Origin: a virus
Lineage: Duplodnaviria > Caudoviricetes
Length of the DNA: 64,000 nucleotides
Direction: 5' to 3' (one strand)
IMG/VR virus record: IMGVR_UViG_3300028591_000099
Coordinates: 1 to 64,000 of that record
In this document: positions 6,699 to 63,813 of the stretch, piece after piece
Layout: each line of letters begins with the position of its first letter
Position numbering within the stretch: the first letter of the stretch is position 1
Made by a program: the position numbers and the translations under genes
Notes under the pieces: generated by a model
What the model was told of the DNA's origin: nothing
Seen by the model: the letters and a program-made list of their open reading frames with translations, nothing else
Databases searched by the model: none

Positions 6699-7049
6699 TC
6701 AAATCTTGGTGAACCAAGCGACCCCTTTCACCATCTCACGCGAAACGCGAATTTCCTTACGCAGTTTCGTGACAAGGGCAGTTACTTTCTGCGAATTGGC
6801 ATCAGCGAGTTCGTCAACTAAACCCTTAATGTCAGCGATACGATAGGCAACCCCATCTTCCATAGCGTTGTAAATCGCATCAGCGAGGTCAGCATTTGCA
6901 ACCTGTTTCTTGGAGGGCTTGAGCGAGCGAGAAGCGTTTTTCTTCTCTAACAGGTCGAGTTCATGGTCAATAAACTCAACGAGTTCAGGGTGGTCAGCAA
7001 CGAGGGAGCGGAGTTCGAGATAGCGGTCACGTTTAGTAATTTTTTCCAT
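6699..7049 (-). CDS. putative winged-helix DNA-binding protein, family A; ends at TGA
   Basis: KPSKKQVAN motif and SQKVTALV helix; three paralogues in the window. Confidence 0.8.
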   Translation of the reverse strand: MEKITKRDRYLELRSLVADHPELVEFIDHELDLLEKKNASRSLKPSKKQVANADLADAIYNAMEDGVAYRIADIKGLVDELADANSQKVTALVTKLRKEIRVSREMVKGVAWFTKI

Positions 7050-7366
7050 TAGGTTATCACCTTTCCTTTCTTACATACATAGTATAACATGGATTGAATT
7101 AGATGTCAAGGGGTTTCTCACAACTTTTTTTAGAAGTTTCGTGGTAGATTGGGATTTGAGCCTATCGGCTCCCCTCTCCCCTTGACGATTATAGTATAGC
7201 AAATAGGGTGTGCAAAAAACATGCCAAGCAAAAATTTGCGTCAAAAAAAAATTTTTTGTATAATAATAATGTAAGGAAAAGAAACCTTACAAAAATTCCA
7301 TTCCATTTAAACTTTTTTCTAGGAGGGGGTGCCCGGGGCGGCACCCTTTTCCTATTGAAAAAGCCT

Positions 7367-8038
7367 TCAATGTTTGAAGGCAATTTCACGAACGAGTTTT
7401 TTCTTGCGTTTATTGAGGTATCCCATAATTGCGGTTTCAATTTCGACGTCCTTTAAGCCAGTGTGAGATTCAGTAAAGTTGGGGTCTTTGAGAATGTAGC
7501 GATAGACTGTTTCAGCCTTGATTTGCGGACGCCCATTTTTTGTGAGGTAATTATTTTCCTCGCAGAATTTCACATAGTTGCGATTTTTGAGGAAGGTCTG
7601 CTTCGCCATTTTCATAATGTCGATGTATTGCGTATCTTTAGGGAAGAAATACCATTTTTTGTTAAGGAAGGAATTAGTCTTTTTTAATGCATAGTAATCG
7701 AATGAGGTATTGTAAGCCGCTACCTTTTTGATGTTGTATTTCTCCATCAAGTCAAGGATTTGCGTTCTCGCATCATCGAACGAAACGAGCGACCGCACAC
7801 CCTCGCCAATTTCTACAAAATACTGAGGGAGTTTGTCAGCGTAGTATGAAGTTTTCATACGCTTGTATTCGCCTTGGAAAATGTCCTCGACTACAAGATT
7901 TAATGTTTCATAGATATTGCCAAGTCTATCACAAACCGCAACCCCAATGTCATAGGTGAGTGCGTTACAACCATAGACCCCTTTAGAATGGTCGAAGGTT
8001 GCGGTTTCAGTGTCGATAGTCAGAATGTAATCTTTCAT
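7367..8038 (-). CDS. DEDDh 3'-5' exonuclease; ends at TGA
   Basis: IDTET, AYNTSFD, HTGLKD motifs. Confidence 0.85.
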   Translation of the reverse strand: MKDYILTIDTETATFDHSKGVYGCNALTYDIGVAVCDRLGNIYETLNLVVEDIFQGEYKRMKTSYYADKLPQYFVEIGEGVRSLVSFDDARTQILDLMEKYNIKKVAAYNTSFDYYALKKTNSFLNKKWYFFPKDTQYIDIMKMAKQTFLKNRNYVKFCEENNYLTKNGRPQIKAETVYRYILKDPNFTESHTGLKDVEIETAIMGYLNKRKKKLVREIAFKH

Positions 8039-8227
8039 AGTTATAACCTCTCTTTAACTTACAAGTATAGTATACCACTCTTGGAACAAGGTGTCAAGCG
8101 GTATTTTTAGGATTTTTGAAATAGCGTGCTAATGTGCAGAAATCGCCCCGGGAAATGTGGTAATAGCATCCTATTGAAAATTCCGCCCGCTGCGGCCAAA
8201 AGCGGGCGGCCCAAAAGAAAAGACACC

Positions 8228-8461
8228 TTAATAGGTGTCATAGCCGAGTATTTCAGCCTCGAATTCAGAATACTTATCTATGTATTTGGGGTTAGTGAAA
8301 TACATTTTAGCAATTTGTTTAGCCTCTTGGAGGGTTTCACGTTCTACGAAGAACTCTTCACCTGTTTCTTCATCATAGAATAGAAAGTCCCAATAGTGCT
8401 TCGTGGTTTCTGAATGGCACATGTTGCGTTCGTAGTTGTCTTGATAGAGTTTCTTTTCCAT
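8228..8461 (-). CDS. small acidic protein, family D
   Basis: DFLF...GEEFFVE..T..EA..IAK..F, C-terminal LGYDTY; paralogue of 8554..8748. Confidence 0.75.
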   Translation of the reverse strand: MEKKLYQDNYERNMCHSETTKHYWDFLFYDEETGEEFFVERETLQEAKQIAKMYFTNPKYIDKYSEFEAEILGYDTY

Positions 8462-8553
8462 AGGTCTTTACCTCTCCTTGCATTATTATAATAACAGAAA
8501 AGAAGTTAGTTGTCAAGAGATTTTTTCAAAAAATGTGCCCGGGCGATAGATAC

Positions 8554-8748
8554 CTAGAAGGTATCTAATCCGAGAAATTCGCCTTCTTCGGGGGTCATCT
8601 CTTCCAAGAGCCAAAGGCAACCCTCGCCATTTTCAGTTGGGAAATTTTTCTTCGCTATTTCCCAAGCCTCTCCGCGTGTTTCGCACTCAACGAGGAAATC
8701 GACCTCGCCATTATCGGATTCATAACTGAATAAGTAATCTTTTAACAT
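8554..8748 (-). CDS. small acidic protein, family D
   Basis: DYLF...GEVDFLVE..T..EA..IAK..F, C-terminal LGLDTF. Confidence 0.75.
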   Translation of the reverse strand: MLKDYLFSYESDNGEVDFLVECETRGEAWEIAKKNFPTENGEGCLWLLEEMTPEEGEFLGLDTF

Positions 8749-8791
8749 TTTAATCACCTCTCCTTACAGTATTAGTATAACAGAAAAGGGG

Positions 8792-8998
8792 CTAATCGTC
8801 AAGCCCCTCTTCAAAGAAATTGCCTTTTGTGTAATACGTTTCGATTTCTTCAATCTTTGTATCTGTGACATAATCCCATAAATCACAAGACAAAGTTTCT
8901 TCAACAGCATCTTCAAGGCTATCACCATAATACTGAGGGCAAACCTCAACTTCACATTCGAGAATGACTTTACATTTTACGACTTTTCTTTCTTCCAT
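8792..8998 (-). CDS. small acidic protein
   Basis: own promoter, AAGGAG RBS. Confidence 0.7.
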   Translation of the reverse strand: MEERKVVKCKVILECEVEVCPQYYGDSLEDAVEETLSCDLWDYVTDTKIEEIETYYTKGNFFEEGLDD

Positions 8999-9087
8999 TT
9001 TTTTTACTCCTTTTTTCTTACATTATTAGTATAACAAATAGGGGTAAGGTTGTCAATACCTAATCTAAAAAGTTTTTTCCCGGGGCG

Positions 9088-9103
9088 GTTAGGTGCACCT
9101 AAC
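9088..9103. promoter_or_regulatory. GTTAG-N6-CTAAC palindrome (DtxR/MntR-like); further copies at 6662, 9872, 9906, 10964, 11056
   Basis: recurring 16-bp inverted repeat with a variable centre. Confidence 0.5.
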
Positions 9104-9247
9104 AACCCAAGTCCGCAAACCAAAAAAGCCCCCTCACTAGGGCTCTTTTGGAAGAGAGGAAACAAGAAAAATGAATTTAGGAGGAAGAAACAAGGGCGAA
9201 AGGTGGAAACTTTAGCCCCTCTTTTTACCCCCTAAAGGGGGAGAAGG

Positions 9248-9583
9248 TTAGGCAACCTTGAACAGAGTTACCTTACCTTCCTTGACCTTGACAACAGAGC
9301 CATTGTCAACTAACTGTTTGAGCAGAGCCGAAGCCTTCTGATTGGAGGACAGACCGAGACCCTCTGCGATAGCAGTAGCAGTAGCACCTTCAGTGTTGCC
9401 GAGGAAGTCAACGATAGCACCCTTGATACCCTCGTTTTCAACCTGATTCTTGGTAGCCTTGCGAGTGCCGTTAGACTTGCGAACAGACTTTAACGCACGT
9501 TCCTTTAAGAAGGCGAAGTCATCAGCAGACAGATTAGCGAAGTCGATAGCGTTGATACGAGCAGTGATAGTCATTTTTTCCAT
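9248..9583 (-). CDS. putative winged-helix DNA-binding protein, family A
   Basis: KATKNQVEN, TATAIAEGLGLSSNQKASALLKQLVDNGSV wHTH pattern. Confidence 0.8.
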   Translation of the reverse strand: MEKMTITARINAIDFANLSADDFAFLKERALKSVRKSNGTRKATKNQVENEGIKGAIVDFLGNTEGATATAIAEGLGLSSNQKASALLKQLVDNGSVVKVKEGKVTLFKVA

Positions 9584-9934
9584 AGTTTTAACACCTCTTT
9601 CTTTTTACATTTTTATTTTAACATGGAATGTTTGGTTTGTCAAGTCTTTTTTTGATTTTTTTGAGAAGGTTGGTAGGGAACTTGACCGAGCCCCTCTTTA
9701 CCTTACATCTTAATGATAGCACCTTTTGGAAATCTTGTCAAGCATTTTTTTTAATTTTTTTGAAGATTTTTTTGAGGTGGTAGTTAGGATTTTTCCCTCC
9801 CTACATTATTTATTATACTGATTTTCGGGATAATGTCAATAGGTCTGCGTAAAAAAGTTTTAATTTTTTTTGTTAGTTAAGCCTAACAAAGTTCGCCCGG
9901 GCGGTGTTAGCAGCCGCTAACTTTCGGCCGCAAC

Positions 9935-9952
9935 TTGTGAAAGTTCTCACAT
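9935..9952. promoter_or_regulatory. Rex-like operator
   Basis: TTGTGAAAGTTCTCACAT, 2 mismatches. Confidence 0.5.
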
Positions 9953-9978
9953 TAGCAAGCAGTTTGTGAAAAAAGCCC

Positions 9979-10356
9979 CTAGGCTTTAGGGGCTCTGTGC
10001 TTGGTCAGTTTCACAGTGTAAGAATTTTCACCAACCTTGAAACTGATTTCTGCTTCATTCTTGACAGAGATTTCATACTCTGCAAGTGCGTTCTGCAATT
10101 TTTCAATGAGCATTTTCTTTTCCTCATCTACTTTACGCTCACGCTTTACATTACGTTTTTCAGCAGGTTTTCTATCGGCTTTTGTGAGATTGCGGACAAG
10201 TGCTTTCTGCTCTTTAGTTAAAGCACCAAGTTCCTTGTCGCCATTTTCAATAGCCAAGTCCCAATCTACGCTTTCCTTTGCTTCTTCATAGGTGCAACGT
10301 AAGACTTTCATTTGACGCTTGATTTCGGCTTCATACTGTGCTTGAGTGAGTTTCAT
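9979..10356 (-). CDS. hypothetical protein, family B
   Basis: paralogue of 6214..6582; GAGGTG RBS. Confidence 0.8.
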   Translation of the reverse strand: MKLTQAQYEAEIKRQMKVLRCTYEEAKESVDWDLAIENGDKELGALTKEQKALVRNLTKADRKPAEKRNVKRERKVDEEKKMLIEKLQNALAEYEISVKNEAEISFKVGENSYTVKLTKHRAPKA

Positions 10357-10430
10357 TTTCAACACCTCTCTTTCTTCTCTTATATTCTAGCAGATAGAGG
10401 GGGCTTTGTCAACCCCCTCTTTGAGGTTTT

Positions 10431-10778
10431 TTAGATTTTGGTGAACCAAGCAACACCCTTGACCATTTCTCTTGAAACTCTGATTTCTTTTCTGAGTTTG
10501 GTTACAAGAGCCGTTACTTTCTGAGAGTTTGCGTCTGCTAACTCATCCACAAGGCCTTTGATATCTGCGATTCTGTAAGCGACACCTTCTTCCATTGCGT
10601 CATAGATTTTATCTGTGAGTTCATGGTTGGCTACCTGCTTAGCAGTGGGCTTGTTAGAGCGTGAAGCGTTCTTCTTTTCAGTGAGAGCAATCTGCTTGTT
10701 GATGAATTCGATTTCTTCTTCATCTGTTAAGTGAGAGAGAATCTGCAGATACATGTCGATTTTAGTGCGTTTTTCCAT
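10431..10778 (-). CDS. putative winged-helix DNA-binding protein, family A
   Basis: last 51 aa identical to 6699..7049. Confidence 0.85.
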   Translation of the reverse strand: MEKRTKIDMYLQILSHLTDEEEIEFINKQIALTEKKNASRSNKPTAKQVANHELTDKIYDAMEEGVAYRIADIKGLVDELADANSQKVTALVTKLRKEIRVSREMVKGVAWFTKI

Positions 10779-11185
10779 AGTGATTACCACCTTACCTTTC
10801 TTACATTATTAGTATAAGCGATTTTAGAGATTTTGTCAAGCACTTTTTGAACTTTTTTTGAAGTTTTTTTTTGAGGGCTTGCGGTCTCTCCTCATCCCTT
10901 ACACTTATTATTATAATGATTTCTTAATAGAAGTCAATACCCAATTTTAAGGTTGGCGTAATTTTAGGACAACCTAATCAAAGTATAAAAAAATGCGATT
11001 TTGCTCTTGACAACTGGGGGTCGGATGTGGTATAATTTTCGGCCCGCCCTCGGTTGTTAGGGAGACCTAACAGAGCGTGCGCCCGGGGCTAAGCCGGTCG
11101 GTTTCAGCAAAAATCGCACACAATGAAAAATTATCTATTGACTTTTGGACTAAAGAGAGTATAATAATAATTGTAAGAGAGGTAA

Positions 11186-11899
11186 ATGAAAATGAACTTA
11201 ATGACTATTGATACAGAAACAACAAACTCACTTGATGACCCAATCGTCTATGATTTGGGTCTGGCAATTCATGATGAAAATGGTAATGTATTCCATACTG
11301 AAAGCCTTGTAATCGCAGAAACATTCCTCAATGAAGAATTGATGAGCGTGGCTCTGTTCGCAGATAAAATCCCAACCTATTGGAAAGACATTAAAGAGGG
11401 CAAAAGAAAGTTAGTTAAACTCTCTACTGCTAAAAGAATTGTTAAAAATCTGATTAAGCGGTATGGTATTAAAACAGTAATAGCACACAATGCGTTCTTT
11501 GATTACAAATCATTAAATACTACATTACGCTATTATTCAGGTTCAAAATACAGATACTTCTTGCCTTGGGGCGTAGAGATTTGGGATAGTCTGCGAATGG
11601 CAAAAACTGTTTTGCTGAAAGATGAAAAGTATGTGAATTGGACGATTGAAAATAACTACTTGACAGAAAAGCGGAAAAGTCCAAAGTTGACCGCAGAGGT
11701 CATCTATCGCTACATTACGAATGATGAAAGTTTCATTGAAGAGCACACAGGTTTGGCTGATGTGATGATTGAGAAAGAAATCACAAAGTATCTCTTGGCT
11801 CGCAGAGACCCCAACATGAAACGCATGCTATTTAATAAGTCCAAAAGTGAAGATACAGAGGACTTGATAGCATGGTATCTAAACTCACTCGCAGAGTGA
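11186..11899 (+). CDS. DEDDh 3'-5' exonuclease (paralogue of 7367..8038); ends at TGA
   Basis: IDTET, AHNAFFD, HTGLAD motifs; own promoter; TGA lies inside a terminator hairpin. Confidence 0.85.
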   Translation: MKMNLMTIDTETTNSLDDPIVYDLGLAIHDENGNVFHTESLVIAETFLNEELMSVALFADKIPTYWKDIKEGKRKLVKLSTAKRIVKNLIKRYGIKTVIAHNAFFDYKSLNTTLRYYSGSKYRYFLPWGVEIWDSLRMAKTVLLKDEKYVNWTIENNYLTEKRKSPKLTAEVIYRYITNDESFIEEHTGLADVMIEKEITKYLLARRDPNMKRMLFNKSKSEDTEDLIAWYLNSLAE

Positions 11900-12112
11900 G
11901 TTTTTTACACAAAAGGTGGCCCGGATTTTTGGGCAAACGCACAAAAGCAAAATAATTGCGAAAATTGCTTGACAAAATGCGGGGGATGTGCTATACGTAA
12001 AACTCGCACCGAGCGGCCCGGGCTCGGCGCGACGAAAAGTCAATAAAAAAGCCAATGGGCAAGAGAGGTAAGGGGACCCATTGACTAGGAATTGGTTATT
12101 TAGGGGTAGAAA

Positions 12113-12242
12113 GGGGGTGAGTGGGAGTCGAACCCTAATTCACTTATTCAACGTCTAGACATACGCAAGTAATCCGCGGTTCCTTGAATAGAGGTCTAGG
12201 TTGGAAGTCACTACAGCCACTTCGTGTTAGAAACTTCACCCC
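12113..12242 (-). ncRNA. tRNA/tmRNA-like structured RNA (about 130 nt)
   Basis: GGGGTGA/TCACCCC acceptor-like stem, GGG-TTCGACT-CCC T-arm, internal CAACCTAGAC/GTCTAGACGTTG stem. Confidence 0.55.
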
Positions 12243-12278
12243 ATTTTTTAGAGGGGGAGAGGGTCTCCCCCAAGAGGG

Positions 12279-12608
12279 CTAGGCAATTCGCCAAGTTGCC
12301 TTGACCTTGCCCTTACCTTCAGTCTTTACGAGACCCTCGCCATAGTGCGTGAGCAGAGCAGAGACTTTCTGATTGCTGAGGTCGAACGCTTCCTCAATGT
12401 CCTTGCAAGTGACAACACCCTTTTCAGCGATGAAGTCCTTAATCTTTGCCATCAGTTCAGCATTGGCAACCTGAACCTTTGTGGGCGTGGTTCTCTTATA
12501 GGACTTCTTATGTCCTAACAGTTCGATTTCATGGTTGCAGAAGTCAACGATTTCAGCGTCATTGGAGCAAACAGTAGCGATGCGAGCGAACATTTCTTTC
12601 TTTGTCAT
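12279..12608 (-). CDS. putative winged-helix DNA-binding protein, family A
   Basis: PTKVQVAN, SNQKVSALL motifs. Confidence 0.8.
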   Translation of the reverse strand: MTKKEMFARIATVCSNDAEIVDFCNHEIELLGHKKSYKRTTPTKVQVANAELMAKIKDFIAEKGVVTCKDIEEAFDLSNQKVSALLTHYGEGLVKTEGKGKVKATWRIA

Positions 12609-13014
12609 AGATTTAACACCTCTTTCTTTCTTTACATTTTTAGTATACCATGACTTGGTGGGTTTGTCAACCCTTTTTTGAGAGATTTTCACATTTACTT
12701 CTTCTTTGAAGTTTCAGCGTAGGCAACCTCTCTCGCCTTACATCTTCATTATAGCACTTTTTGATTTTTTGTCAAGCACTTTTTGAAGATTTTTTGTAGA
12801 TTTTTGATGAGCCTCTATGCAACACTTTTCAGTTTGCAGGTCTGTCGCCTCTCGGCTATCTCCGACTCGCTCTTGAGGCTCATCTCTCTCCCTACACTTA
12901 TTATTATACTCATTTAAGAAGTAATGTCAAGGGTTCTTTTTTAATTTTCTTTAAGTTTTTTTATTCACAAGCGGCCGCCCGGGGCAATTTACCCGGGGCA
13001 GAAAAAAGACTGCC

Positions 13015-13257
13015 TTAGCAGTCCCAATCATACCCTCCCATGTAAGGATTGTAGCCTACTTCAGACCCCCAATAATCATCATCAAACTCGAGGTCTTCAT
13101 CAGGCTGTTCCGAAGGAAGCAGTTCCCAATCCATTCGAGAATTTTTGCGAAGGTAGCCACCATAGGCTTCAAACTCATCGTGGGCAATTTCCCAAAAGAG
13201 TTCGACATTGTTTAGAGTGAAGATTTCGCCTGTAATGTTGTTTGTGAATGTATACAT
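13015..13257 (-). CDS. small acidic protein
   Basis: own promoter and RBS; C-terminal GYNPYMGGYDWDC. Confidence 0.75.
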   Translation of the reverse strand: MYTFTNNITGEIFTLNNVELFWEIAHDEFEAYGGYLRKNSRMDWELLPSEQPDEDLEFDDDYWGSEVGYNPYMGGYDWDC

Positions 13258-13343
13258 TTTACTTACCTCTCTTTACATTGTTAGTATAACATAGTAGGGG
13301 TGTCTTGTCAATAGTGATTTGAAAAAAATAAGCCATTTTTGGC

Positions 13344-13583
13344 TTATTTTCTATTTTTGTAAGAGGGGATTTCAATTAACCAATTATCTAATTTTTTGCT
13401 AATGTGAATAATGGCCTCATCTGTGTAAGTAGTTACATCTTTACAATTATAGATTTCATCTTGAGACATTGTTTCAAACTTCTCTTCGGGAACTAACAAA
13501 CAAGGGCACAAAAGCACAATTTCGCCTTTTTCAACATCAAAATCGACACCATTTGCTTCAAGAACTTTAATTAACTCATCCAT
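13344..13583 (-). CDS. hypothetical protein
   Basis: GAGGT RBS before ATG 13583; own promoter. Confidence 0.7.
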   Translation of the reverse strand: MDELIKVLEANGVDFDVEKGEIVLLCPCLLVPEEKFETMSQDEIYNCKDVTTYTDEAIIHISKKLDNWLIEIPSYKNRK

Positions 13584-13730
13584 TTTTTTAATACCTCTTT
13601 TCTTCATTATTATTATAAAATACTTTTTCAAAAAAGTCAATAGAAAATTGAAAAGTGTTTGCGGCCGGCCGGTCAACCGCCCGGGAGGGTCTAGGTAAAA
13701 CCGGTCTCAAAATCGCCCGGGCGCAAGCAC

Positions 13731-14144
13731 TCAACCCCACAAAGCAATAGGGTCAAGTGCAAGTCCATTCCAATTTTCTCTTATCTTTTGGTTGTCATCT
13801 ACGAGGATAGCATTTTTTGAGTTTTTCAAGTTTTTATTATTCCCATACTTTCTGTAAATTCGTTTTGAAATTGAAGGGAAATAAGCATCAAGCCAAGCGT
13901 TTTTCATTTTAATTACTCGCTTGCAGTATTCCGCACTCGCATTTTTCGGTGTCATTGATAGAACGATAATTTCATAGTGGTCTTTTGGAAAAACCGATTT
14001 CAATACTTCTTCAGTAGTCAGTCTTTCATCTCCACCGAACACTGTTTCATCTTCACTCTCCAGTCTTGCGAGCCAGTTTTTCTTACCATACAAGTTGAAG
14101 ATAGTTCCGTCCATGTCAAGATAAACTCTAGTCTTTTTCATCAT
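13731..14144 (-). CDS. HAD-family 5'(3')-deoxyribonucleotidase-like protein; ends at TGA
   Basis: YLDMDGT and ILVDD motifs. Confidence 0.8.
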   Translation of the reverse strand: MMKKTRVYLDMDGTIFNLYGKKNWLARLESEDETVFGGDERLTTEEVLKSVFPKDHYEIIVLSMTPKNASAEYCKRVIKMKNAWLDAYFPSISKRIYRKYGNNKNLKNSKNAILVDDNQKIRENWNGLALDPIALWG

Positions 14145-14278
14145 TCTTACCTCTCTTTACAATACTATTATATCACATCGGGGGACGGTGTCAATACCTA
14201 AATTAAAAAGTTGTATCAAAAGTTGCCCCGGGCGTATCCATTAGAGAATAAAAGCAAAAAAGAAGAAGCAGAGAGGTT

Positions 14279-14755
14279 TTACTTCTTCTTTTGGTAATGC
14301 CGTATGGAACAATTAAATCTTTGATTCCATTTTCTCATTTTGGAAGGAAACGCTTTATAATAAGCAATCGCCCATTCAGTAGCCATACTTTCACGTATTG
14401 TATCAAAATACGCAATTTGTAATTCATCTTCAGTATACTTCCTATCACGTTTTGCCAAGAGTTCGCTTACAATGTCTCGCTCTTGCTCTTCTTTTGGAAG
14501 ATATTCAAGTGTATAATGATGACCTAATTCATGCAGTATTGACATTGTGAATAGGTTGGTTTTATTAACGATAAAGTTATATTTATTTTTAAGGTATTGC
14601 TCCCAAATCGCATCTTCTTTTGGTTGCGGTGCTAGGGTATATCCGATAATACCTTCATCGTAGTAGTAGAACCCATCGAGCTCATATTGAACCTCGCAGT
14701 CTCCCTCTATGAATTTCGATATTAGTTTTGAAAGTTGGTTATATCGTCTTGCCAT
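14279..14755 (-). CDS. HExxH zinc metallopeptidase-like protein
   Basis: ILHELGHH plus downstream E..A..WA. Confidence 0.7.
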   Translation of the reverse strand: MARRYNQLSKLISKFIEGDCEVQYELDGFYYYDEGIIGYTLAPQPKEDAIWEQYLKNKYNFIVNKTNLFTMSILHELGHHYTLEYLPKEEQERDIVSELLAKRDRKYTEDELQIAYFDTIRESMATEWAIAYYKAFPSKMRKWNQRFNCSIRHYQKKK

Positions 14756-14835
14756 ATCTTACCTCACATTCTTATTATACCTCGCTTAAGGGAGGAAGTC
14801 AAGGGGCACTTTTGGAGAAGTGCCCCAGGGAGGGC

Positions 14836-15294
14836 TCAAGCGGCACGGAGAGTGAGCCTTGCATTGCGGAGAGTTCTCTCAGTTGTGATTGTCGCACCCT
14901 CGAACTTGACTTGGACTTCCTTGCCGTTGATATTGACATCACCTTGGACATAGAAGGGGATATTGTCGGCTTCCCAGTGCTGACCTGCGACCTGCTCGGT
15001 GACATATCTTTCGAAAGCGTGACCCTTGTTTTTAGCGAGGGCGTAGATTTCTGTATCTGTGCCGATATAGGTAGCACCCTTGCGGATTAACTGCTCTTTA
15101 TAGAGATTGTTGAGGCGGAGGCGGAGGGTTAATGCCCCACCGTGGGAGGTTGACTCTTTTTCAACGGTCATATAGCGTGGCATAATGTGCGGGAGTTCGA
15201 CCATATAGATACCGTGCTTGTAGACAAAGCCCATAATAGTGCTATCGGAAGCGTCCATGGTGCGGTAGTTTTTAATCATCGTGTTCTTGTTCAT
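14836..15294 (-). CDS. hypothetical protein, family F, possible PD-(D/E)XK fold; ends at TGA
   Basis: G..FE...GDV.....QVK; paralogue of 21021..21458. Confidence 0.7.
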   Translation of the reverse strand: MNKNTMIKNYRTMDASDSTIMGFVYKHGIYMVELPHIMPRYMTVEKESTSHGGALTLRLRLNNLYKEQLIRKGATYIGTDTEIYALAKNKGHAFERYVTEQVAGQHWEADNIPFYVQGDVNINGKEVQVKFEGATITTERTLRNARLTLRAA

Positions 15295-15682
15295 CTTGTA
15301 TACCTCTCTAACTGTCTTTATTATAAAGGATACACCGGAAAATGTCAAGCGTTTTCAAAAATTTTTTTATGAAAGTGTTTACATTTTTTTTGAAACAATT
15401 TTCATAATTTTTTGAAAAAATTTTCTGAAAAAATGTTTTTGGGATTTTCAAAAAATGTAAAAAATTTTCACAAAAAAAGTGCTTGACATGCGGCCGGCGA
15501 TGTGCTATAATTTTCGGGCCCTAAACGGCCTCGTAATAGCGTGCTATAGGTCCTCTAGGTCCACAGTTCCGGGCGTGCCGCGACCGTATGACACGCCCGG
15601 CTCTGTGTGTAAAAAATGTCCACGGGTCCGGGTGTGCCAAGTTCGGCTCGCCGCAACCCTTGGCGAGCCGACAAAAAAAACC

Positions 15683-15844
15683 TTACCGCATCCAGTAAGG
15701 TCTATAGTCGGTGATATCTTCAAATTCATTCCGCTCTTCTGCGGAGAATGTCCGTCTGAACCAACGTTCGCAAGCATCGTAGCTATCAGCGGAGTATTCA
15801 ACGATTTCACCAGTGTTTTTGTTTAACCAAGTCATTGTTGTCAT
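15683..15844 (-). CDS. small protein (53 aa, MTTMTWLNKNTGE...)
   Basis: promoter and AGAGAGGT RBS; not in ORF track. Confidence 0.7.
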   Translation of the reverse strand: MTTMTWLNKNTGEIVEYSADSYDACERWFRRTFSAEERNEFEDITDYRPYWMR

Positions 15845-16080
15845 TTTTTAATACCTCTCTTTACACTCTTATTATAACATAGTCCGGGCTAATGTCAATA
15901 GGTTTTCAAGATTTTTTTCGATTTTTTTTCTACCAGATAATCGAGAACTTGCGGAGTCCGCTTATTTTTTAGCTGAGTTGTTACCTTGCGGTACTCAGTG
16001 GGAGTGCGGTTTTCATTCCCTCCCCCTTACATCTTTATTATAGCACATTCGCTATTTTTGTCAATACTTTTTTTTTATTT

Positions 16081-16245
16081 TTAGTAGTCAAGTTTTTTAT
16101 ACTTGGCTTTGCGTGGGATTTCTTTTTTCTTGTCTTTGTGAAGTCCACAGCCAGTCATTCTCCAGCTTTCCGCAATCCACAAGTTGCGGACGTGCGATTT
16201 TTCGGGATGGTTGTAAACTCTAACGCCGTTTTTATCTTTCTTCAT
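16081..16245 (-). CDS. small basic protein (54 aa, ...HKDKKKEIPRKAKYKKLDY)
   Basis: promoter and AGAGAGGT RBS; not in ORF track. Confidence 0.7.
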   Translation of the reverse strand: MKKDKNGVRVYNHPEKSHVRNLWIAESWRMTGCGLHKDKKKEIPRKAKYKKLDY

Positions 16246-16320
16246 TTTTTAATACCTCTCTCTATCTGCTTTTATTCTACTCTATTTAAGTTTAGTTGTC
16301 AAGCATTTGGAGAGATTTTT

Positions 16321-16443
16321 TTAATCTCTCCAATTAGTGACAGTGAGTAATTTTCCGAACTCTTTTTCGTGAAAGCGAATTTCAGAGCGGGATAATTTGC
16401 GAGCGAGCACCTCGCCACGTTCGAATCTATAGAGTTTCATCAT
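16321..16443 (-). CDS. small protein (40 aa)
   Basis: GGAGGT RBS before ATG 16443. Confidence 0.65.
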   Translation of the reverse strand: MMKLYRFERGEVLARKLSRSEIRFHEKEFGKLLTVTNWRD

Positions 16444-16516
16444 AGGTTTTATACCTCCCTTAACTGTCTTAATTATAGCAGATGACAAGACAAAACGCAA
16501 TACCCCGGAAGTCACT

Positions 16517-16554
16517 TTGTGTGTTCGCACAATACAGTTTGTGCGTTTGTCCAA
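16517..16554. promoter_or_regulatory. tandem TTGTG-N6-CACAA sites with 22-bp period; also at 17451, 18372, 18763
   Basis: four pairs, each 14-16 bp upstream of a minus-strand -35. Confidence 0.65.
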
Positions 16555-16564
16555 TACGGGATTT

Positions 16565-16628
16565 TTGTGATTTTATTCACAATTGCGACTTGTGAAAAAA
16601 TAATTTGTGAATGTGATAATTTTCACAA
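16565..16628. promoter_or_regulatory. cluster of Rex-like operators
   Basis: TTGTGATTTTATTCACAA (16565-16582), ATGTGATAATTTTCACAA (16611-16628). Confidence 0.6.
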
Positions 16629-16653
16629 GCGAAAATCGTCAACGGAGAAGATT

Positions 16654-16776
16654 TTAACCTTCTCCATAGACTAGCCATCTGCCATCTTCTAACTGTTTCA
16701 TTCTGCGGCCGCATCCACGGTTTAAGCATTTTCTCGCTTTAGTGTAATCTGTGAAGTATCTTTTGAACATTTTCAT
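16654..16776 (-). CDS. small basic protein (40 aa)
   Basis: GAGGAGG RBS; not in ORF track. Confidence 0.6.
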   Translation of the reverse strand: MKMFKRYFTDYTKARKCLNRGCGRRMKQLEDGRWLVYGEG

Positions 16777-16843
16777 TATCTGTTCCTCCTCATCTATAGT
16801 ATAACGCATTGACCGGAAAAACACAAGAGTTTTTTATCGCTTT

Positions 16844-17137
16844 TCAGCAATAAATTAAACTCATGTCCGACCATTTCAAAATTGAAATCTGCTTGCAGTT
16901 TCTGCCGATTCTTAACGCTTCTTTTTTTGTGCGTTCTCTGTGGCTCTTGTCGATGTAGTAGACGCCGTCCGCAAACCACACGCCGCAATTTCCATTGTAA
17001 GCCTTTACTAACTCTTCTGCCTTTTGGAGCGATTTAGTTTCATAGCCTTCTGTGGCGACTTGGTAACCTGTTTTATAGTTTACTGATTTGAAGTTTTTAA
17101 GCGTTAAGCCTTCGTTGTTTTTTAAGTTTTCTAACAT
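16844..17137 (-). CDS. hypothetical protein; ends at TGA
   Basis: own promoter and RBS. Confidence 0.75.
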   Translation of the reverse strand: MLENLKNNEGLTLKNFKSVNYKTGYQVATEGYETKSLQKAEELVKAYNGNCGVWFADGVYYIDKSHRERTKKEALRIGRNCKQISILKWSDMSLIYC

Positions 17138-17210
17138 TTTCCTTACCCTCTTTATACTATTATAATAGCATGCCCGGGCGGTTTTGTCAATACCCTAAAA
17201 CAAAAAAGTT

Positions 17211-17378
17211 TTAGAATTTTTCTAAAACTTTAATGTTTGCGATTTCTAATGCACCAACCGCAATCAGCAGAGGGAAGGCGGAAAGTTCAAAATCGTGAAG
17301 AGATAACAAGCAGATACCAAGAGCAAAGGTGATAATTTCTAATGCTTTTCTAATGGAAGGGCGGAGTTTACGTTTCAT
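17211..17378 (-). CDS. small membrane protein (55 aa)
   Basis: AGAGAGGT RBS; basic N-terminus and two hydrophobic stretches. Confidence 0.65.
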   Translation of the reverse strand: MKRKLRPSIRKALEIITFALGICLLSLHDFELSAFPLLIAVGALEIANIKVLEKF

Positions 17379-20768: not shown

Positions 20769-20811
20769 TGTGTGTTCCTCTCTCTCTTTACCTTATAGGT
20801 TGCCTACGTCA

Positions 20812-25260: not shown

Positions 25261-25261
25261 T

Positions 25262-55871: not shown

Positions 55872-58283
55872 ATGAAAGAAAAGGACCCAATGTTGGATGA
55901 AGAGTTTCTAAAAGAACTTGATTTATATCCGCATAAGTTTACTTGAGCTAAAATTATCGCCTTAAACTGAGAAGAATATCCAATGCAGGAAATTACTGGC
56001 AGAATAACCAGTGGAAGTATAAATGTGGACGGTGCTTCTGCCGTCCGCAGAACCTGCAGTTTATCTCTGGTCGCAAATGATGTAGATATTAACAACTTCT
56101 ATTGGAGTTTAAATACTAAGTTTAGAGTAGAAGTGGGCTTAGAGAATTGAATAAATCCAGACTATCCCGATATTATATGGTTTAATCAGGGCATGTTTAT
56201 TATATCGTCATTTAATTGCTCTGTTGGAGTTAATAATTATTCGATAAGCATTAGTGGAAAAGATAAAATGGTATTATTAAATGGAGACGTTGGTGGTGTA
56301 ATTCCAGCCTCTTGGGATTTTGGGACTGAAGATGAAACACTTGAAGATGGAACCATCCAAAATAATTTAATACCAATTAAAGACATTATATTACAAGGCG
56401 TGCATGAGTTCGCACAAGAGCCGTGGCAAAATATAATTGTAAATGATTTAGATGATTATGGAATTGAATTATTGGAATATATTGGTGATAATCCTTTATA
56501 TTATATTATTACCGAAGATGGCGGCGATAATGATTCAAGAGAAGTTTATCAAATGACTATATATGGTGATGATGTAAAATGTCAAGTGAGAAAAGATACT
56601 TGAGATGCAGCCCTCAATAAAAGAATAAAGAATGAAGAAGATTGAGGTAGTGAAGTTCCTATTAGTCAAATGGCAGAAGGAACAACCGGTCAACTTTGTT
56701 ACGAGGGGCTTATGGAGCAATTAGATCCAACTGGTGCAGTGACTGAAAGTGAAAACTATATGCCTGCCGTTGTTAAAATCAGTGGAGATGATGAAGAGAG
56801 CCGATACAGAATAGCGAGGATATCTAAAGAAGATGGAACTCATATTTGTGGTTATCGGATTTGTGATATTGTATATCCTTATGATTTGATATTAAGTCCA
56901 GGTGAGACTATAACCGCTATGCTGGATAAATTAGTCCAAATGCTCGGTAATTTTGAGTATTTTTATGATGTAGATGGACGATTTGTATTCCAAAAGAAAA
57001 GAACTTATTTAGATGTAAGTTATAATAATATCATTAACGAACATACTATAAATGATACAGTATGAGCCAATAGTGGAGAATATAGTTCTAAATATTCATA
57101 TACTTTTGATGATAATATTTTAGTATCATCTGTTTCTAATGCCCCCAATTTAAGTAACTTAAAAAACGATTATTCGTTATGGGGGAGTAGGAAACAAGGT
57201 GACATTGAAGTCCCAATTCATATGCGATATGCTATTGACCACAGACCGGTTTATTACAAAACTTGGGATGGTGTAGAGTATGCGGTTGGCGATAACGTTA
57301 CGCGACTAGATCCAGAATCGGAAGTGCAGATTGTTGATTGAAGAGAGATTATTTATCGAATGGCGAATGATTATCGACGTCATTATAGAGATGATGATTT
57401 TCTAATAAAAATACGTGATAATAATAAATATAATGGTTATGACTCTTATTATCCAAAAGGATATACCGGTTATGAGAAATACTATATTGACTTTGAAATG
57501 AACTTAAGTCAAGGCGTTGTTGCATATTGGAGAGAACTTTATAATCCAGACGCAAAAGGGAAAACAGTTATTTATCAACCAGATGGTAGTTTTATAGAGA
57601 ATACTGGAGCGGACTGGGCTGAAGGCACCGCATATGCGGAAGGTGACTTGGTAGAATACCAGGGTAATGTGTATAGATCAATCGAGGATGATAACACAAC
57701 AGAACCGACGGCCGCAGATTCAAAATGACTTGTTTCTCTTGGAGATTTTAGTTATAATAGTGATGGATGAAATAATGACATCTTAAAGAACCCGGAAATG
57801 TTAAATTTCTGATTTGATTTTTTAGATACTACGGGCGAATTAAATAAATATAGTGTCTCTAATATCGGGCAAAGGTCGAAAGCAGTTAATGACGACAAAA
57901 TAAAAGCCATATATTTTAGAGAAACTCCTAATGTAATATTTGAGACTGAAAAGGATAATGTCGACCAAAGTAAATGAAGAAAACCAGGATACGCACATAT
58001 TAAAATACCGGCAAGTTTTAATGATCTATTTGCTATTAGTAGTCGAGGTAAGAATGCGATGGATGTAGTAGAAGAATATCTATATACTTATACTTATCCA
58101 GCAAGTGCGATGACATTAAATGTAGTCCCAATATATTATTTAACACCGAACACTTTAATTTATATAAACGATAAAGAAACTGGTGCTATTGGAGAATATA
58201 TTATGCAAAAGTTCTCAATACAGTTAGGTCTAAATGCTCAAATGAGTATAAATGCGATCGAAACTGCTAAGAGGATTTATTAA
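55872..58283 (+). CDS. baseplate/tail protein, 803 aa, with inserted CBM5/12-like carbohydrate-binding module
   Basis: joins ORFs 56193, 56670, 57360, 58059; WAEGTAYAEGDLVEYQGNVY motif. Confidence 0.7.
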
Positions 58284-58641: not shown

Positions 58642-61600
58642 ATGGGATTTTATGGAAATATAACTAATGTTAATAAATCTACTTTCCAATTTGATAAGAC
58701 ATATTATACCGCAAGGGATATGATGGAGAATGCTGCGACTGATGGAGTTTTTGTTGGTCGTTACGTTTTAGTCGATTATGATGAAGCTCCTAGCCCAGAA
58801 GCGTTATGAGATGTTTTCAAGAATGAGGCAGAAGGCAATAAAATATCAACTGTTCATCCAGGATACAGAAGAACTATTAAAGTAAATAATTCAGAATATT
58901 ATGATGGTATAACCGATGAAGGATTTATCATTTATAAAAGTTTTGATGCTTGAGAGGAAGGAACTTCATACTCAAAGGGGGATGTAGTCTCTTATGAGGG
59001 AGTATCTTATCGTTCAATCGCAGATGATAATACGACAACTCCTGGATCGAATGAAACTAGTTGAGTTCGCTATCAAGATTTCGGATTCTATCCAGGAAAA
59101 CCTGTAATAAATGATGGCGAAACTTTAGATCAATTATATTCGAAAGAAGTGCTATCTAATTTAAATGGTAATTTTATTTTAGATTTAGGCTATACTTTAG
59201 AACATTATGAAACTATTACCACTGAAGAAGGAACTGAAGAGTTAAAACTCAAAGTTGAAGATTTTGTCATTAAAGGCGTAGAACCAGAATTATGGCAAAT
59301 TTTAGTCGATGGAGAAGAAGTAAAATTACTTAAATTAAATACTGTTGAAAGTTTAAGTAAATATAGAGAATTGTCTGCGGGCATTGAAATAACAAATAAT
59401 TATGCTTCTAACTATATTGTAGACCAGACTTATTTCGCAGAAAAAAGTGGTGGTCAGGGCTTAGGCAGAGGTTATGACTCAACTGTTTGGCAAAAAGTTA
59501 TAAAAGAGGGCAAGGCCACTTATGTAATGATTGCTGAATTGAACTCAGTAGTGCCTACATTTGATATTGCTCCTATTGCTCCTGGTAAAAATGGAGTAGT
59601 AATTCCACCTCAGTGGAGCCCAGAGACTTCTAATTTATATTATAAATTGCTAATGCAGCCATCTTGAAGTTTCGAAGTACAGAGTGATGTCGATTATAAA
59701 GATACCCATGAAGATAATTCTGAAATAGATACAGATATTCCTGATAAGGCTATTTGGTGGAACGACGCTGGTTTCAATAAGTTTATTCCATCTTATTTTG
59801 ATAAGAAAAATGAGATTTTGGTTGAACCTACTGGAATAAGCGGAGTTGAATATAGTGATACAAAAGGACCAGCAGAAGATACTTATGAATTAAGTATTAT
59901 GCTACCTCAAATTGGTAATACTATATCTCAAATCTGGGATATCATTTATGGTGAACCTCATCTTAAAGACACGGCTGGTCGTATATTATTGGGTGGAGAA
60001 AACTCAGATTTAGCCGCAACAGAAGAAACTCCATTAAGAAATACTCATTTAGAGTGGAATTCAAGCCAGGGTGAACGTATGCTAAGGGCGAGAGATGAAA
60101 ATGATGACCCATATAACGGTTATAATCCAAAAGCCTTAAATACTTTAGCTGGCACTCTTAATTCAGTTCATGATTTAATGGGTATGATTATTGTTGAAAA
60201 AGACAATATCCAAGAAGTTGACGCAGATACTTTAGATAGCAATAATATTTATTATGATGCAACAAGCAATAAATATTATTTCAAAGATAGAAAATATTTA
60301 TTCAGTGATAATGAAGAAGATTTCAAAATTACTGATATGGTTGAAAGACCAAATAAATTATACAGAGCAAAATCATTTGATTTTATTGCTGATAATAAAA
60401 CCGGAGAAATAGATACCGCAAATAATTATTATCTTGTTTTAAATAATGAAGAGATTTCTGAAGATTGTGTTTATGGTGACGTAAAACCGAGTGCACCAAA
60501 CCCAGAATTAACTCAAGAAAATTATAACCCAGAATCTGAAAATCCAGATGAATGAGTATGAACTTGAGATTCCACTCGAAGAAGATACAGTAGAAAATTA
60601 GATGCTTTAGCTCAAACTGATGGGGGATACTATCATTTAACTAATATCGAAAAGGTGAAAGATCAGAATACTCCAGAAGAAGCCCGCCCGCATTTTTACA
60701 AAGCAAATAAGTATTATTTAGGTATAAAATCTTTTGCGACAGGTGCGGATAAAACGGCTTGGGAAAATGAGTTAAATAATAAAACTGGCTTAGAAGCAAT
60801 TGATTTTGATTCTATTACTTTATGTAAAACGGATAGTTTTGAAGCCGCTAAAAAAGATGCTAGGATTTTAGTCTCAGGGCCTACTGAAGGTAGCTGAATT
60901 GAAAATCCTTTAATTGGATATCGGGTTTTAATTGGTATTGAAGTTGACCCAAGACACTCAACTTATGATTTAATTGATGAAAATTTAACTAGAGAACCAA
61001 TAGGAACCACTTCGGCTCCTGGACTTGAAGTTGATGGAACTTATATTAAAAAAATAGATGATATTTATGTTTATGAGTTTGCTGGAATTACAGAAACACT
61101 CCAAAACTGTGAAGAGTCTATTGTGTCTATCCCTGATGCGGGAAACCCTGAAGAAACTATCACAAAAACATATGTTAGATATTTAGGTTGTAAATATAAA
61201 AATACTGCTGAAGATACTGATAACGAATTGCGAACATTGAATAGTTGAAAACAGTATGCATTAGAAAACAGCATTGATCCTAGCGACTTAAAATTAGTAT
61301 TAGAACAAAAACTTGTTCCAGAATTGGTAAAACCGGCTTACTCATTAGCGAATGTAACTATAATTGATAATTTGGAAGATTTTAATAAAGATGGATATGT
61401 CGATTATTATTATACAGATGATCCGGAAAATCCAACATATTATAGAAAATTAAGTTATGAGGCTGCTGAAGAAGGCACAGGACAGGGCGAAGCGGATTGG
61501 TATACATTAACTCCTTCAAATGCTTTTATCTACTATGTATTAAAAGATGAATATTATGAAGAGGACGAAGATGGCAACTGGCTTAGAGTTATTGCGACTG

Positions 61601-63813
61601 ACCAAAATAAATTAGCTGGCTATGAAGATATTAGTCAATTTAGAAAAGTAAAATGAGAGTCTAAACATATATTTATTCCAAATGTTTACTATAAAAAAGT
61701 TAATGGAGAATATGTCTTAGCAGAAACCTTCGAAGAAGGTGTAGATTATTACAGATATCCAGGCAAGTTTGTCGTAGAAGATGAAAATGACATATTTGCG
61801 GAAGGCGCTGAATGGAATCCAGAAGTGCCAGAACATGATGACGTTGATTTACAATATAAAGGATTTGAATGAACCTTAACTGAATTGCCAGGATTCTCAG
61901 AACAGATTAATACAATGCATGGATTAATCTTAAAAGTTAATAAGATGTTACTTGAAGGCGATATGATTACTCGTGACCGCCAAACAGTACAAGGTTGTAT
62001 TAATACATTAAATGATATTATTGATAAGTTCGATCAACTGAAACCTGCGGAAGTCGTTATGGTAGATGCATATGGACGAGTTCATAGCGGCGATTGAGAC
62101 AGTAAGCAAAAATCAAATACTGCGGTAGGTGCGGCACCAGCCATTCCGACCGGAGAACCTGCGGCCGCAGATAATAATCGTTGAATTAAATTAACAACTA
62201 CTGCTGGAGAGGCTCCAGACTTTAAGCCTCATATTAAATTAGAACATACCTTTAAAGCTGGAACAGACAATCCAATTACCACTAACTTAAATATAGATAA
62301 TGTTCCTTCTGAAAACAGTAGCGATAAATTGGTATTATATACTCCTATATTAGATAATATGGGCCACGTAGTTGCTAAGCAAGAAGATACAGTTACTCTA
62401 CCTTATGGATTTAAGACTGTAAGTATTGGTGTTGAGAATAATGGTATTGCTAATTTGGCACATGCGGCAGGCGATCTTGTAGCAGAAAACACTCAGGATA
62501 CTATAAATGTTAATTCTGGAAACAAATGGATTAAATTAGCGGCTACCGCAGATAGTGATTCAGTTGCTATTGGACACTTGGTTCAATCTATTGATACACA
62601 GCCAGCATTCGCAAGCGATATTAATGGTAATGGTGATACAATTACAGTTCAAGATATTACCCATGATGAGGCGGGTCATATTAGAAAGAATAAGGCTCAC
62701 ACCTATACACTGCCTTACGGATTCAAAACTATCACTGGTAATGGCGGAAGTTTAGTTGCACGCAGCACCCAAGATACTGTCGCATTGAGCGGAGATGATT
62801 GGATTCGAGTCACAGCGTCCGGTGATGGAATAAAATTTGAACATCGTGAACCGATTACTGTTGAACCAAAGCAAATAGGCGTATTAGTTCCTCATTTTGG
62901 AGAGACATTTGATATTACAGGTTGAAGTTTTGATGATAAGGGGCATAAAACTGGAATTGAGACTTATTCTGTAACTATTCCTAAAGGTAGTTTAAGTGTC
63001 AGTGAAGGAATTGACAATGCTAAAGTTATTACATCATTATCATTAGATAGTCGTATTGGAGCATTAACCGCAACTAATAAAAATATAGGCGATTTACGAC
63101 TTATAGGTTACAATTTGAGTAATAATGGTAGCAGTGAAGGTGCGATATTAGAAAGTGATACAATTAATACAGCGATCGCCAGATTAGAGTATAGAATGAA
63201 TAAGGTTAAAAATGACCTTATTGGAAATGTCGGAGATGCCGCTACTGTTAATACATTATATGGTATTAAAACATGAGTTTTAGAGCAATTAGGCACTATT
63301 GAAACTTCTGGTAATTTCTGAGGAGTCCAAGTGAGCGGTGTAGATGCAACTGCTGATATCCCTGTTACGGCTACGTCTACTAATGATCCTCAATTAATTT
63401 CTTTGCCTGATACTAAAATTGTTACATATGGAGTCGCTGACTATGAATTAGTTGAAAGAAATGGTATTCGTAGTATAAAAGTAAATCAAGCTGGAACGTA
63501 TAAAGTACAAGGTAACATTGGTATTAGATGTGTTAATTATAAAGCGGCTTACTTCAGAGTTGGTATAGTAAAAATAAATAGTGCTGGCACCGTTGCCTCT
63601 ATTACATCTACAACAGAAGCAATAGAAAATTCAGCTGATAATGTATCAATAGCTGGAGTATTTGCGATTGGTGCTAGAATACTTTCTCTAAATGCTGGAG
63701 ATGTTATTGCTTTAGGTGCATCTAGAGCGGGGGCTACCACAGGAGATGGCTCTGATTTAAGAGTAGCTTACGATGGTAATACTGCATTATTTGTAGAGCG
63801 AGTAGATAATTAA
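58642..63813 (+). CDS. large tail fibre/receptor-binding protein, 1723 aa, with CBM5/12-like module
   Basis: seven ORF-track fragments share one frame; D..GH...TLPYGFKT repeats. Confidence 0.7.

Follow-up and report, generated by a model that had tools for sequence, protein, structure and literature searches.

Evidence for three uses of TGA in one SPbeta-like phage genome and for a suppressor tRNA split by a predicted group I intron

Late-gene recoding has been described in Firmicutes gut phages of the Jade, Sapphire and Agate clades (Borges et al., bioRxiv 10.1101/2021.08.26.457843, later Nat Microbiol 2022), block-wise use of multiple codes with a "dual-coded" early block has been reported with Mgcod (Pfennig, Lomsadze and Borodovsky, bioRxiv 10.1101/2022.06.29.495998), and TAG or TGA is reassigned in the late genes of crAss-like phages, which have many introns and among which some genomes lack a detectable suppressor (Yutin et al. 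2021, PMC7886860; Peters et al. 2022, PMC9523058). The presence of two codes in one phage, with recoded late genes, is already published (Borges 2021/22; Pfennig 2022; Yutin 2021); late-gene recoding is an accepted phenomenon, but the mechanism and timing of the switch in a cell with the standard code are still open. Here we analyse a 64,000-base stretch of phage DNA (the window), which represents bases 1-64,000, or the left 40%, of the 160,981-base virus record IMGVR_UViG_3300028591_000099 (Duplodnaviria; Caudoviricetes), together with the rest of this genome, whose numbering continues that of the window. Very probably, this genome treats TGA in three ways, as a stop codon in early genes, as a codon to be avoided in replication genes and as tryptophan in late genes, the switch being made by a phage tRNA(UCA) in a standard-code Bacillota host. 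Because one molecule holds TGA as stop, avoided and Trp, it provides a very clean natural example. To the published cases it adds an early block that is not just code-neutral but does require code 11 (TGA as stop), a putative late regulator that combines a host-type promoter with a frame needing the new code, and a suppressor tRNA with an anticodon interrupted by a predicted group I intron.

Compared by described features, the genome resembles the Jade, Sapphire and Agate phages in having structural and lysis genes with in-frame TGA, replication genes that can be read with the standard code, a phage suppressor tRNA, a low GC content, an animal gut origin and a size in the range of ~150-200 kb; as in the Agate phages, a recoded GIY-YIG homing endonuclease lies inside the TGA-free replication block. 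It differs from the three clades in the suppressor being split by an intron, from two Jade genomes in having no operon for release factor 1 (RF1) or tryptophanyl-tRNA synthetase (TrpRS), and from the emphasis of Borges et al. on depletion of TGA stops in that a dense early array keeps true TGA stops. As in the Mgcod cases, the code changes with the coding strand, the late genes use a single code and a dual-coded block is present (here at 103-138 kb), but the early block represents a third class, which is not dual-coded. Late-gene recoding, suppressor tRNAs and introns are shared with the crAss-like phages, whose introns, however, have been reported in protein-coding genes and not in a suppressor tRNA (PMC7886860); unlike them, the present phage appears to be an SPbeta-like siphovirus and not a member of the Crassvirales, with a probable Bacillota and not a Bacteroidota host.

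The late block encodes regulator, packaging, head-accessory, tail, fibre and lysis functions. Its extent and its main features within the window, some of which are compared with two phage loci from other samples (L003 and L004, with a protein identity to the window of 61-93%), are:

Genome 22.9-101.6 kb, + strand: late block, open only with TGA as a sense codon
22852-22881, + strand: perfect extended -10 SigA-type promoter before the first recoded gene, conserved in L003 and L004
22922-23992, + strand: sigma-factor-like putative late regulator, 356 amino acids (aa), four in-frame TGAs, C-terminal Zn-ribbon
25235-27046, + strand: large terminase, 603 aa, three in-frame TGAs, whose columns were compared in homologues
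27428-29032, + strand: portal protein, no TGA
28983-30293, + strand: YonD-like head protein, 436 aa, four TGAs, GYL-TGA-T at 29421
31058-32182, + strand: major capsid protein (YonB-like), no TGA here or in two relatives
36537-37616, + strand: tail tube (YomU-like), no TGA
39942-47627, + strand: giant late open reading frame (ORF), 2561 aa, 15 in-frame TGAs, putative tape measure according to the original prediction
47742-51998, + strand: tail or baseplate protein, 1418 aa, 15 in-frame TGAs
55872-58283, + strand: fibre or baseplate protein, 803 aa, 11 TGAs, module with TGG at 57615
58642-63813, + strand: fibre protein, 1723 aa, 16 TGAs, module with TGA at 58951
63928-64000, + strand: start of the next recoded late gene (genome 63928-64803)

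Code 11 fragments the + strand genes between 22.9 and 63.8 kb, while reading TGA as tryptophan (code 4) fuses the fragments to ORFs of 2561, 1418, 803 and 1723 aa and others, and raises the coverage of the late block by ORFs of at least 100 aa from 0.65 to 0.96. As had been noticed from the window, these frames are broken only by TGA. In-frame TGA occurs in 35 of the 52 late genes; in 25,119 codons there are 161 TGA and 138 TGG, about half of the Trp codons being TGA, and TGA plus TGG amount to 11.9 per 1000 codons; for TGG in the replication block the corresponding value is 10.2. When codons were compared with L003 and L004, a TGA of the window stood opposite TGA 20 times, TGG 18 times, TTT or TAT six times and other codons twice, and a TGG of the window stood opposite TGA 18 times, which gives 36 TGA-TGG swaps in total; the residues other than W opposite a window TGA were mostly F or Y, plus one T and one Q, and never Gly. 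Among 120 homologues of the large terminase, W was found in 112 and 115 at two of the TGA columns, the third being variable (R/K/W). The four TGA columns of the first late gene, again among 120 homologues, contained W in 119, W in 120, W in 74 and Y in 43, and Y in 81, F in 21 and W in 13. Readings of TGA as Gly, Cys or selenocysteine were rejected on the basis of these homologue and orthologue alignments, according to which TGA is tryptophan in the late genes.

The original prediction had reached the same meaning of the codon from two motifs. The alignment of TGG at 57615 with TGA at 58951, in modules that were then described as resembling carbohydrate-binding modules, was confirmed as a repeated 47-aa module (51% identity, E 1.8e-10). 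The GYL-TGA-T motif is present at 29421, but the identification of its gene as a protease was not confirmed, the product being a YonD-like head protein. A Pfam search of ten late proteins returned nothing useful, and when 21 late intergenic regions were screened by k-mers for a common late-promoter motif, only words from ribosome-binding sites (RBS) and terminators emerged.

TGA has the opposite meaning in an array of small genes that precedes the late block and is encoded mostly on the other strand:

5300-22900, mostly - strand: early cassette array, ~31 small genes, each with its own SigA-type promoter, G+C content at third codon positions (GC3) 0.41-0.46
6699-7049, - strand: early gene, 116 aa, TGA stop, paralogue of 10431-10790
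7367-8038, - strand: DnaQ-like exonuclease (phrog_20187), 223 aa, TGA in terminator hairpin 7381-7363
10431-10790, - strand: paralogue of the 6699 gene, 119 aa, TAA stop at the same residue
11186-11899, + strand: paralogous DnaQ-like exonuclease, 237 aa, TGA in hairpin 11887-11901
13731-14144, - strand: 5'(3')-deoxyribonucleotidase-like gene, 137 aa, TGA stop
14836-15348, - strand: early gene, 170 aa, TGA stop, with a paralogue (21021-21518) that has TAA
16844-17137, - strand: early gene, 97 aa, TGA stop, with the next gene's promoter, RBS and start behind it
17627-17932, - strand: early gene, 101 aa, TGA at the foot of terminator 17628-17615
18536-18691, - strand: small early ORF, 51 aa, TGA stop, the weakest gene call of the nine
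20812-20982, - strand: small early gene, 56 aa, tandem TGA TGA

All nine genes that had been proposed to end at TGA do so in frame, the one at 20812 with TGA TGA, and the remaining early genes end at TAA (15) or TAG (7). TGA stops thus occur in 9/31 early genes versus 0/33 of the TGA-free replication genes (Fisher p 7e-4). At 7367, 17627 and 11897 the TGA is overlapped by a terminator hairpin; the original prediction had counted three TGAs in or against such hairpins. Its exact alignment of the 6699 TGA with the 10431 TAA was reproduced as well: both paralogues end at the same residue after ~51 identical C-terminal aa, although the codons for these disagree at ~38 positions and the stop codons are TGA and TAA, respectively. 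Such a tail suggests either that the protein is under very strong purifying selection or that one copy was acquired from DNA with another codon usage. All four Arg residues of the shared 51-aa tail are encoded by CGT/CGC in one paralogue but by AGA in the other, and the N-terminal halves of the two paralogues differ.

Homologues support the same gene ends. If read through its TGA, the gene at 11186-11899 would encode 286 aa, but its 120 best homologues have 210-243 aa and cover at most 82% of it, and none enters the 49-aa tail; a search for early-gene homologues running past the TGA, proposed as a check on the original prediction, therefore returned none for this gene. The L004 orthologue of the 13731 gene (62% identity) stops at TGA at the same residue, similarity collapsing beyond, and the paralogue of this gene at 20358-20768 has a similar length and a TAA stop; likewise, the L003 orthologue of the 16844 gene (70% identity) stops at TGA at the same residue, beyond which the DNA alignment breaks down. 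In the public code-4 gene calls of relatives, the TGAs of early genes are confined to 3' tails (for example, a 232-aa call has nine TGAs, all after residue 149), and in those of L003 and L004 early genes run on beyond their true TGA stops or are fused, because code 4 was applied to the whole contig. Judged from these ends, TGA is a true stop in the early cassettes. Gene calling with a single code consequently errs in either direction: code 11 breaks the late genes, and code 4 adds spurious tails to nine of the 31 early genes or joins them to neighbouring genes.

The third situation is found in the following block:

Genome 103-138 kb, - strand: replication and nucleotide-metabolism block, TGA avoided both as sense codon and as stop

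Here 33 of 35 genes are TGA-free, all stops being TAA or TAG, and 109 TGG codons are present. Because TGA is avoided, the block reads alike under both codes, with a coverage by ORFs of at least 100 aa of 0.83 (code 11) versus 0.87 (code 4); the comparison of coding density by code and region, another check proposed with the original prediction, thus separates it from the late block. The two exceptions are the GIY-YIG homing endonuclease, which contains five in-frame TGAs (genome 124,576-125,547, - strand; L024 1576-2547), and a gene with four TGAs that has no PHROG family match.

Were the host to use code 4 without release factor 2 (RF2), the phage would merely follow it, and the early TGAs would be read as Trp up to the next TAA or TAG. 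The heavy use of TGA, with 16 in one fibre gene, would be easiest in such a cell, and no phage anti-RF2 factor was found. This explanation is nevertheless very improbable, as the homologues, paralogues and orthologues end at the early TGAs, with terminator, promoter or RBS beyond, and as the replication genes avoid the codon, while phages of recoded hosts have in-frame TGA in ~90% of their genes (bioRxiv 10.1101/2021.08.26.457843). Against it also stand the avoidance of TGA by the most abundant virion proteins and the presence of a phage tRNA(UCA) (both described below), as well as prfB in metagenome-assembled genomes (MAGs) that hold relatives. The conserved early TGA stops, the TGA-free replication genes, the phage's own tRNA(UCA) and the TGA-free abundant virion proteins are at the same time hints of a standard-code host, and the two MAGs that encode prfB, into which relatives were binned, belong to Bacillota/Clostridia. 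A standard-code host, as assumed in the original prediction, therefore has indirect support from the early TGA stops, the TGA-free blocks and the prfB-bearing MAGs. The titles of the MAGs are contradictory (Treponema, Bacteroidales, Methanobrevibacter, Bacillota, Clostridia), and as a means of naming the host they were rejected as a weak hint.

The code switch had been proposed to be driven by the phage, although no suppressor tRNA or release-factor gene was recognised in the window. A tRNA scan of the 64-kb window indeed found none, and no plain (intronless) tRNA(UCA) was found in the whole genome; with the intron option, however, ARAGORN detected a tRNA(UCA) outside the window, which agrees with a phage-driven switch. 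Default tRNA scans miss this suppressor because a group I intron, as predicted below, splits its anticodon. It is the last gene of an operon (ORF76, Hsp20-like gene, tRNA) that has a terminator and a perfect promoter ahead and a strong bidirectional terminator behind:

Genome 100,994-101,023, + strand: perfect SigA-type promoter, upstream of ORF76, the Hsp20-like gene and the suppressor tRNA
Genome 101,237-101,611, + strand: Hsp20-like gene
Genome 101,637-101,911, + strand: tRNA(UCA) with a 201-nucleotide (nt) insert after U34 (L002 1138-1412)

The exons form a 74-nt tRNA with A1-U72, G73 and an encoded CCA. The combination of A1-U72, G73 and the anticodon N-C-A corresponds to the Trp identity rules of the TrpRS of E. 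coli and B. subtilis, so that by its sequence the tRNA(UCA) has the Trp identity elements. The insert aligns with Rfam RF00028 end to end (model positions 1-253; 34.9 bits, E 2.4e-7 in a 451-base search) and includes R and S boxes. When 14 related loci were fetched by means of the hsp20-like neighbour, all 14 had a tRNA(UCA) right after the hsp20 gene, three of them without insert and 11 with inserts of ~200-320 nt at the same site. All intron copies have the boundaries ...CTT / intron ...G / CAA..., the sole ones that yield a tRNA. RNAalifold, applied to nine copies, predicted 66 pairs, 26 of which have compensatory changes, and the R and S boxes co-vary (GACTA/TAGTC versus GAGTA/TACTC). The core motif of the intron was found in 20 IMG/VR contigs, and every parseable one lies inside a tRNA(UCA). 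We conclude that the insert is a predicted self-splicing group I intron.

Group I introns are known in the anticodon loops of cyanobacterial and plastid tRNA-Leu(UAA) and of Azoarcus tRNA-Ile; they belong to subgroup IC3 and have ~180-250 nt. The present insert resembles them in being small and without ORF, in its anticodon-loop site (after U34, as in tRNA-Leu(UAA)), in a 5' exon that ends with U and an intron that ends with G, and in its P3, P7 and P8 core, R and S boxes and GNRA-capped peripheral hairpins. Unlike in those cases, the gene that bears it is a phage opal-suppressor tRNA. No description of an intron-split suppressor tRNA was found in the literature searched. Suppressors were found in only 35% of TGA-recoded genomes (bioRxiv 10.1101/2021.08.26.457843), and many recoded phages are without a detectable one (same source; PMC7886860). 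Scans of recoded phages for tRNAs should use intron detection. Larger versions of the intron occur in two loci, L018 2879-3273 and L020 2877-3271 (322 nt each, with a ~116-nt insertion after P6), and that of L037 (~11223-11914) has 620 nt and may hold a homing-endonuclease ORF.

Other candidates for the suppressor were rejected: tRNA(UCA) calls made by ARAGORN at 80% stringency, such as c141768-141858 in the tRNA array, have poor stems and 26% GC, and an origin of the suppressor as a recent copy of the phage tRNA-Trp(CCA) was discarded, the two sequences being barely alignable. The wider search recommended by the original prediction thus recovered the tRNA(UCA), whereas neither a release-factor domain (PF00472) nor a class Ib synthetase (PF00579) was found in the genome. 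As the phage encodes no release factor or TrpRS, we infer that the tRNA is charged by the host TrpRS and competes with the host RF2.

The early status of the array at 6-22 kb, which had been assumed from the window, is justified by its SigA-type promoters. Promoter-like sites at 5.3-23 kb number 91 versus 39 expected, 37 of the 69 near-consensus SigA promoters of the genome lie at 5-23 kb, and 16 of its 21 perfect TTGACA-N16-18-TATAAT promoters, many with extended -10, lie in the early array region (the 16 include the + strand promoter at 22852). A promoter of its own precedes nearly every small early gene, and several of these genes also end in a separate terminator. The array also differs in composition, with a GC3 of 0.41-0.46 (~0.42) in the early genes versus 0.23 in late and replication genes, which suggests that it is tuned to the tRNA pool of the host or was exchanged with standard-code genomes.

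This difference raises the question whether the early TGA stops are a passive by-product and not an element of a timing design. In that case a compositionally foreign or host-tuned set of small accessory genes, recently passed among standard-code phages, would have brought along the stop-codon usage of DNA with 40-48% GC; the short tails added by read-through would be harmless, the TGA stops would be under selection neither for nor against them, and the recoding of the late genes would still be real. Composition alone could account for the contrast between the many TGA stops here and the few elsewhere, and this explanation is consequently kept as a serious rival, quite possibly correct although we do not favour it. 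At such a composition 29% TGA stops are ordinary; the GC3 of TGA-ending early genes does not differ significantly from that of the other early genes (p 0.17); gene turnover in the array is fast, with few orthologues in L003 and L004; and the tails beyond the TGAs are short or run into terminators or promoters, and are unconserved. Moreover, in relatives of recoded phages a low GC content by itself reportedly leads to a depletion of TGA stops (bioRxiv 10.1101/2021.08.26.457843). On the other hand, orthologues with only 62-70% identity have retained TGA as the stop at the same residue, one TGA persists in a paralogue pair that is under extreme purifying selection, and the suppressor operon has an early-type promoter; because of the latter, early TGA stops would be exposed to read-through unless the tRNA is delayed.

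The sharp jump of GC and GC3 at 5.3 and 22.9 kb might also be expected from a chimera, in which the assembly joined a code-11 fragment in silico to a code-4 phage. The two ends of the contig, however, overlap by 100 bases with one mismatch, so that it closes on itself, and L003 and L004, which are independent of it, share the junction, with TGA-stopped - strand early genes next to the recoded sigma-like gene and the terminase; a chimera can hardly be credited.

The favoured reading, of a genome with three uses of TGA and a phage-encoded switch, gains a possible regulatory element from the first recoded gene (22922-23992). Its product matches the PHROG family phrog_5767 "sigma factor" (E 7.5e-47); in L003 and L004 the orthologue contains two or three TGAs and is preceded by the same promoter. 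Nothing was found when the product was searched against Pfam, NCBIfam and PDB sequences. An AlphaFold model of it (predicted local distance difference test, pLDDT, 75.5) had no match in the PDB at E <= 0.001 with Foldseek, whereas VIA-align returned many sigma region 4 or helix-turn-helix domains at residues ~215-295 with middling scores (Z 5.6-6.5 (6-7)); the product is probably sigma-like. Since such a regulator, transcribed by the host, would be untranslatable before the suppressor is present, the code switch probably lies upstream of late transcription.

In the original prediction the switch was thought to gate virion assembly as such. The switch itself stands, but this view of the gate is too simple: the portal, scaffold-like and major capsid genes, two small head genes and the tube gene (27428-33222, 36537-37616) encode Trp by 16 TGG and never by TGA (p 4e-6), although they lie next to recoded genes, and in both relatives the capsid and scaffold-like genes are TGA-free and the portal has at most one TGA. 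As the genes of the most abundant head and tube proteins are TGA-free, the bulk structural proteins would not be directly blocked by recoding, and it is more likely that the gate acts via the recoded sigma-like regulator, terminase, protease-like, tail, fibre and lysis genes. The pattern suggests that TGA is decoded less efficiently than TGG; the avoidance of TGA by abundant proteins suggests that suppression is costly, which fits a host with an active RF2.

The evidence presented so far concerns codon meanings, gene ends, promoters, the tRNA and its intron; timing, charging, competition with RF2 and the role of the regulator could be connected with it as follows. The immediate-early array (~5.3-22.9 kb) would be expressed from host SigA promoters with host-like codon usage under code 11, its TGAs acting as stops. 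The suppressor tRNA would be transcribed from its own SigA promoter, and would become usable only after the group I intron has left the anticodon. Presumably charged by the host TrpRS, it would then compete with the host RF2. The host polymerase would also transcribe the sigma-like regulator, whose translation would wait for the suppressor. Going further, these elements might form a translational-code timer with an RNA-catalysed first step, in which the early array, a regulator mRNA that is unreadable (2-4 TGAs) and the unspliced tRNA precursor are co-transcribed, and in which splicing and the build-up of the tRNA against RF2 time the appearance of the regulator, terminase, tail and lysis proteins as well as the extension of TGA-ended early and host proteins. 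We consider such a timer an unlikely, speculative extension; if true, intron-split suppressors could account for part of the ~65% of TGA-recoded phage genomes in which no suppressor was found.

Several points weigh against the reading that is favoured here. The three-way pattern of TGA may partly follow from base composition (GC3 ~0.42 versus 0.23). The code of the host is deduced indirectly, and the binning of phage contigs into MAGs is weak evidence. The sigma-like assignment combines one PHROG family with a middling structural match. For the intron, the RF00028 score of 34.9 is under the gathering threshold of 50, and a search by hand for a P1 helix and guide with a U-G pair at the splice site gave no convincing candidate. 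Finally, genes with up to 16 TGAs would need very efficient suppression, and no anti-RF2 factor was found.

The first and last 100 bases of the record match with one mismatch, from which it follows that the genome closes at ~160.9 kb; it is apparently a closed genome of an SPbeta-like siphophage. No integrase or serine or tyrosine recombinase was found in a genome-wide search, and the phage is probably virulent. The portal protein has kin at 25-35% identity in large siphoviruses of Bacillota, namely SPbeta-like, Sundance, Enterococcus EF1, Lactococcus 949-like and phAss-1 phages. As in Bacillus phage SPbeta, the virion genes belong, in close relatives, to the families YonG, YonD, YonB, YomW, YomV and YomU; unlike SPbeta, with which the protein identity is only 25-35%, the phage has no integrase, and has recoded late genes and 23-24 tRNAs plus a transfer-messenger RNA (tmRNA). 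The relatives come from ruminant-gut assemblies and were often binned with Bacillota or Clostridia MAGs, and the source habitat is probably a ruminant or other animal gut.

The tmRNA is located at genome 138,397-138,751 (- strand, 101 bits), and ARAGORN predicts 22 tRNAs at ~138-148 kb (tRNA genes at 139.5-148.1 kb), including Trp(CCA); Rfam adds up to two, one of which, at 143,007-143,077, was missed by ARAGORN. A tRNA-Ile(UAU)-like gene is present among the phage tRNA genes at 139.5-148.1 kb. To the left of the early array, a small + strand block contains a candidate recoded ORF without family match (3244-3957, + strand, 237 aa, three in-frame TGAs). A tail-fibre-like gene with one in-frame TGA (genome 145,016-146,293, - strand; L001 7517-8794) lies among the tRNA genes, far from the virion module. 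Beside the tRNA array there is a GOLLD-like large RNA (genome 146,684-147,116, - strand; L001 9185-9617), which matches the full model of Rfam RF02032 with 79.5 bits (E 1.5e-19), under the gathering score of 150.

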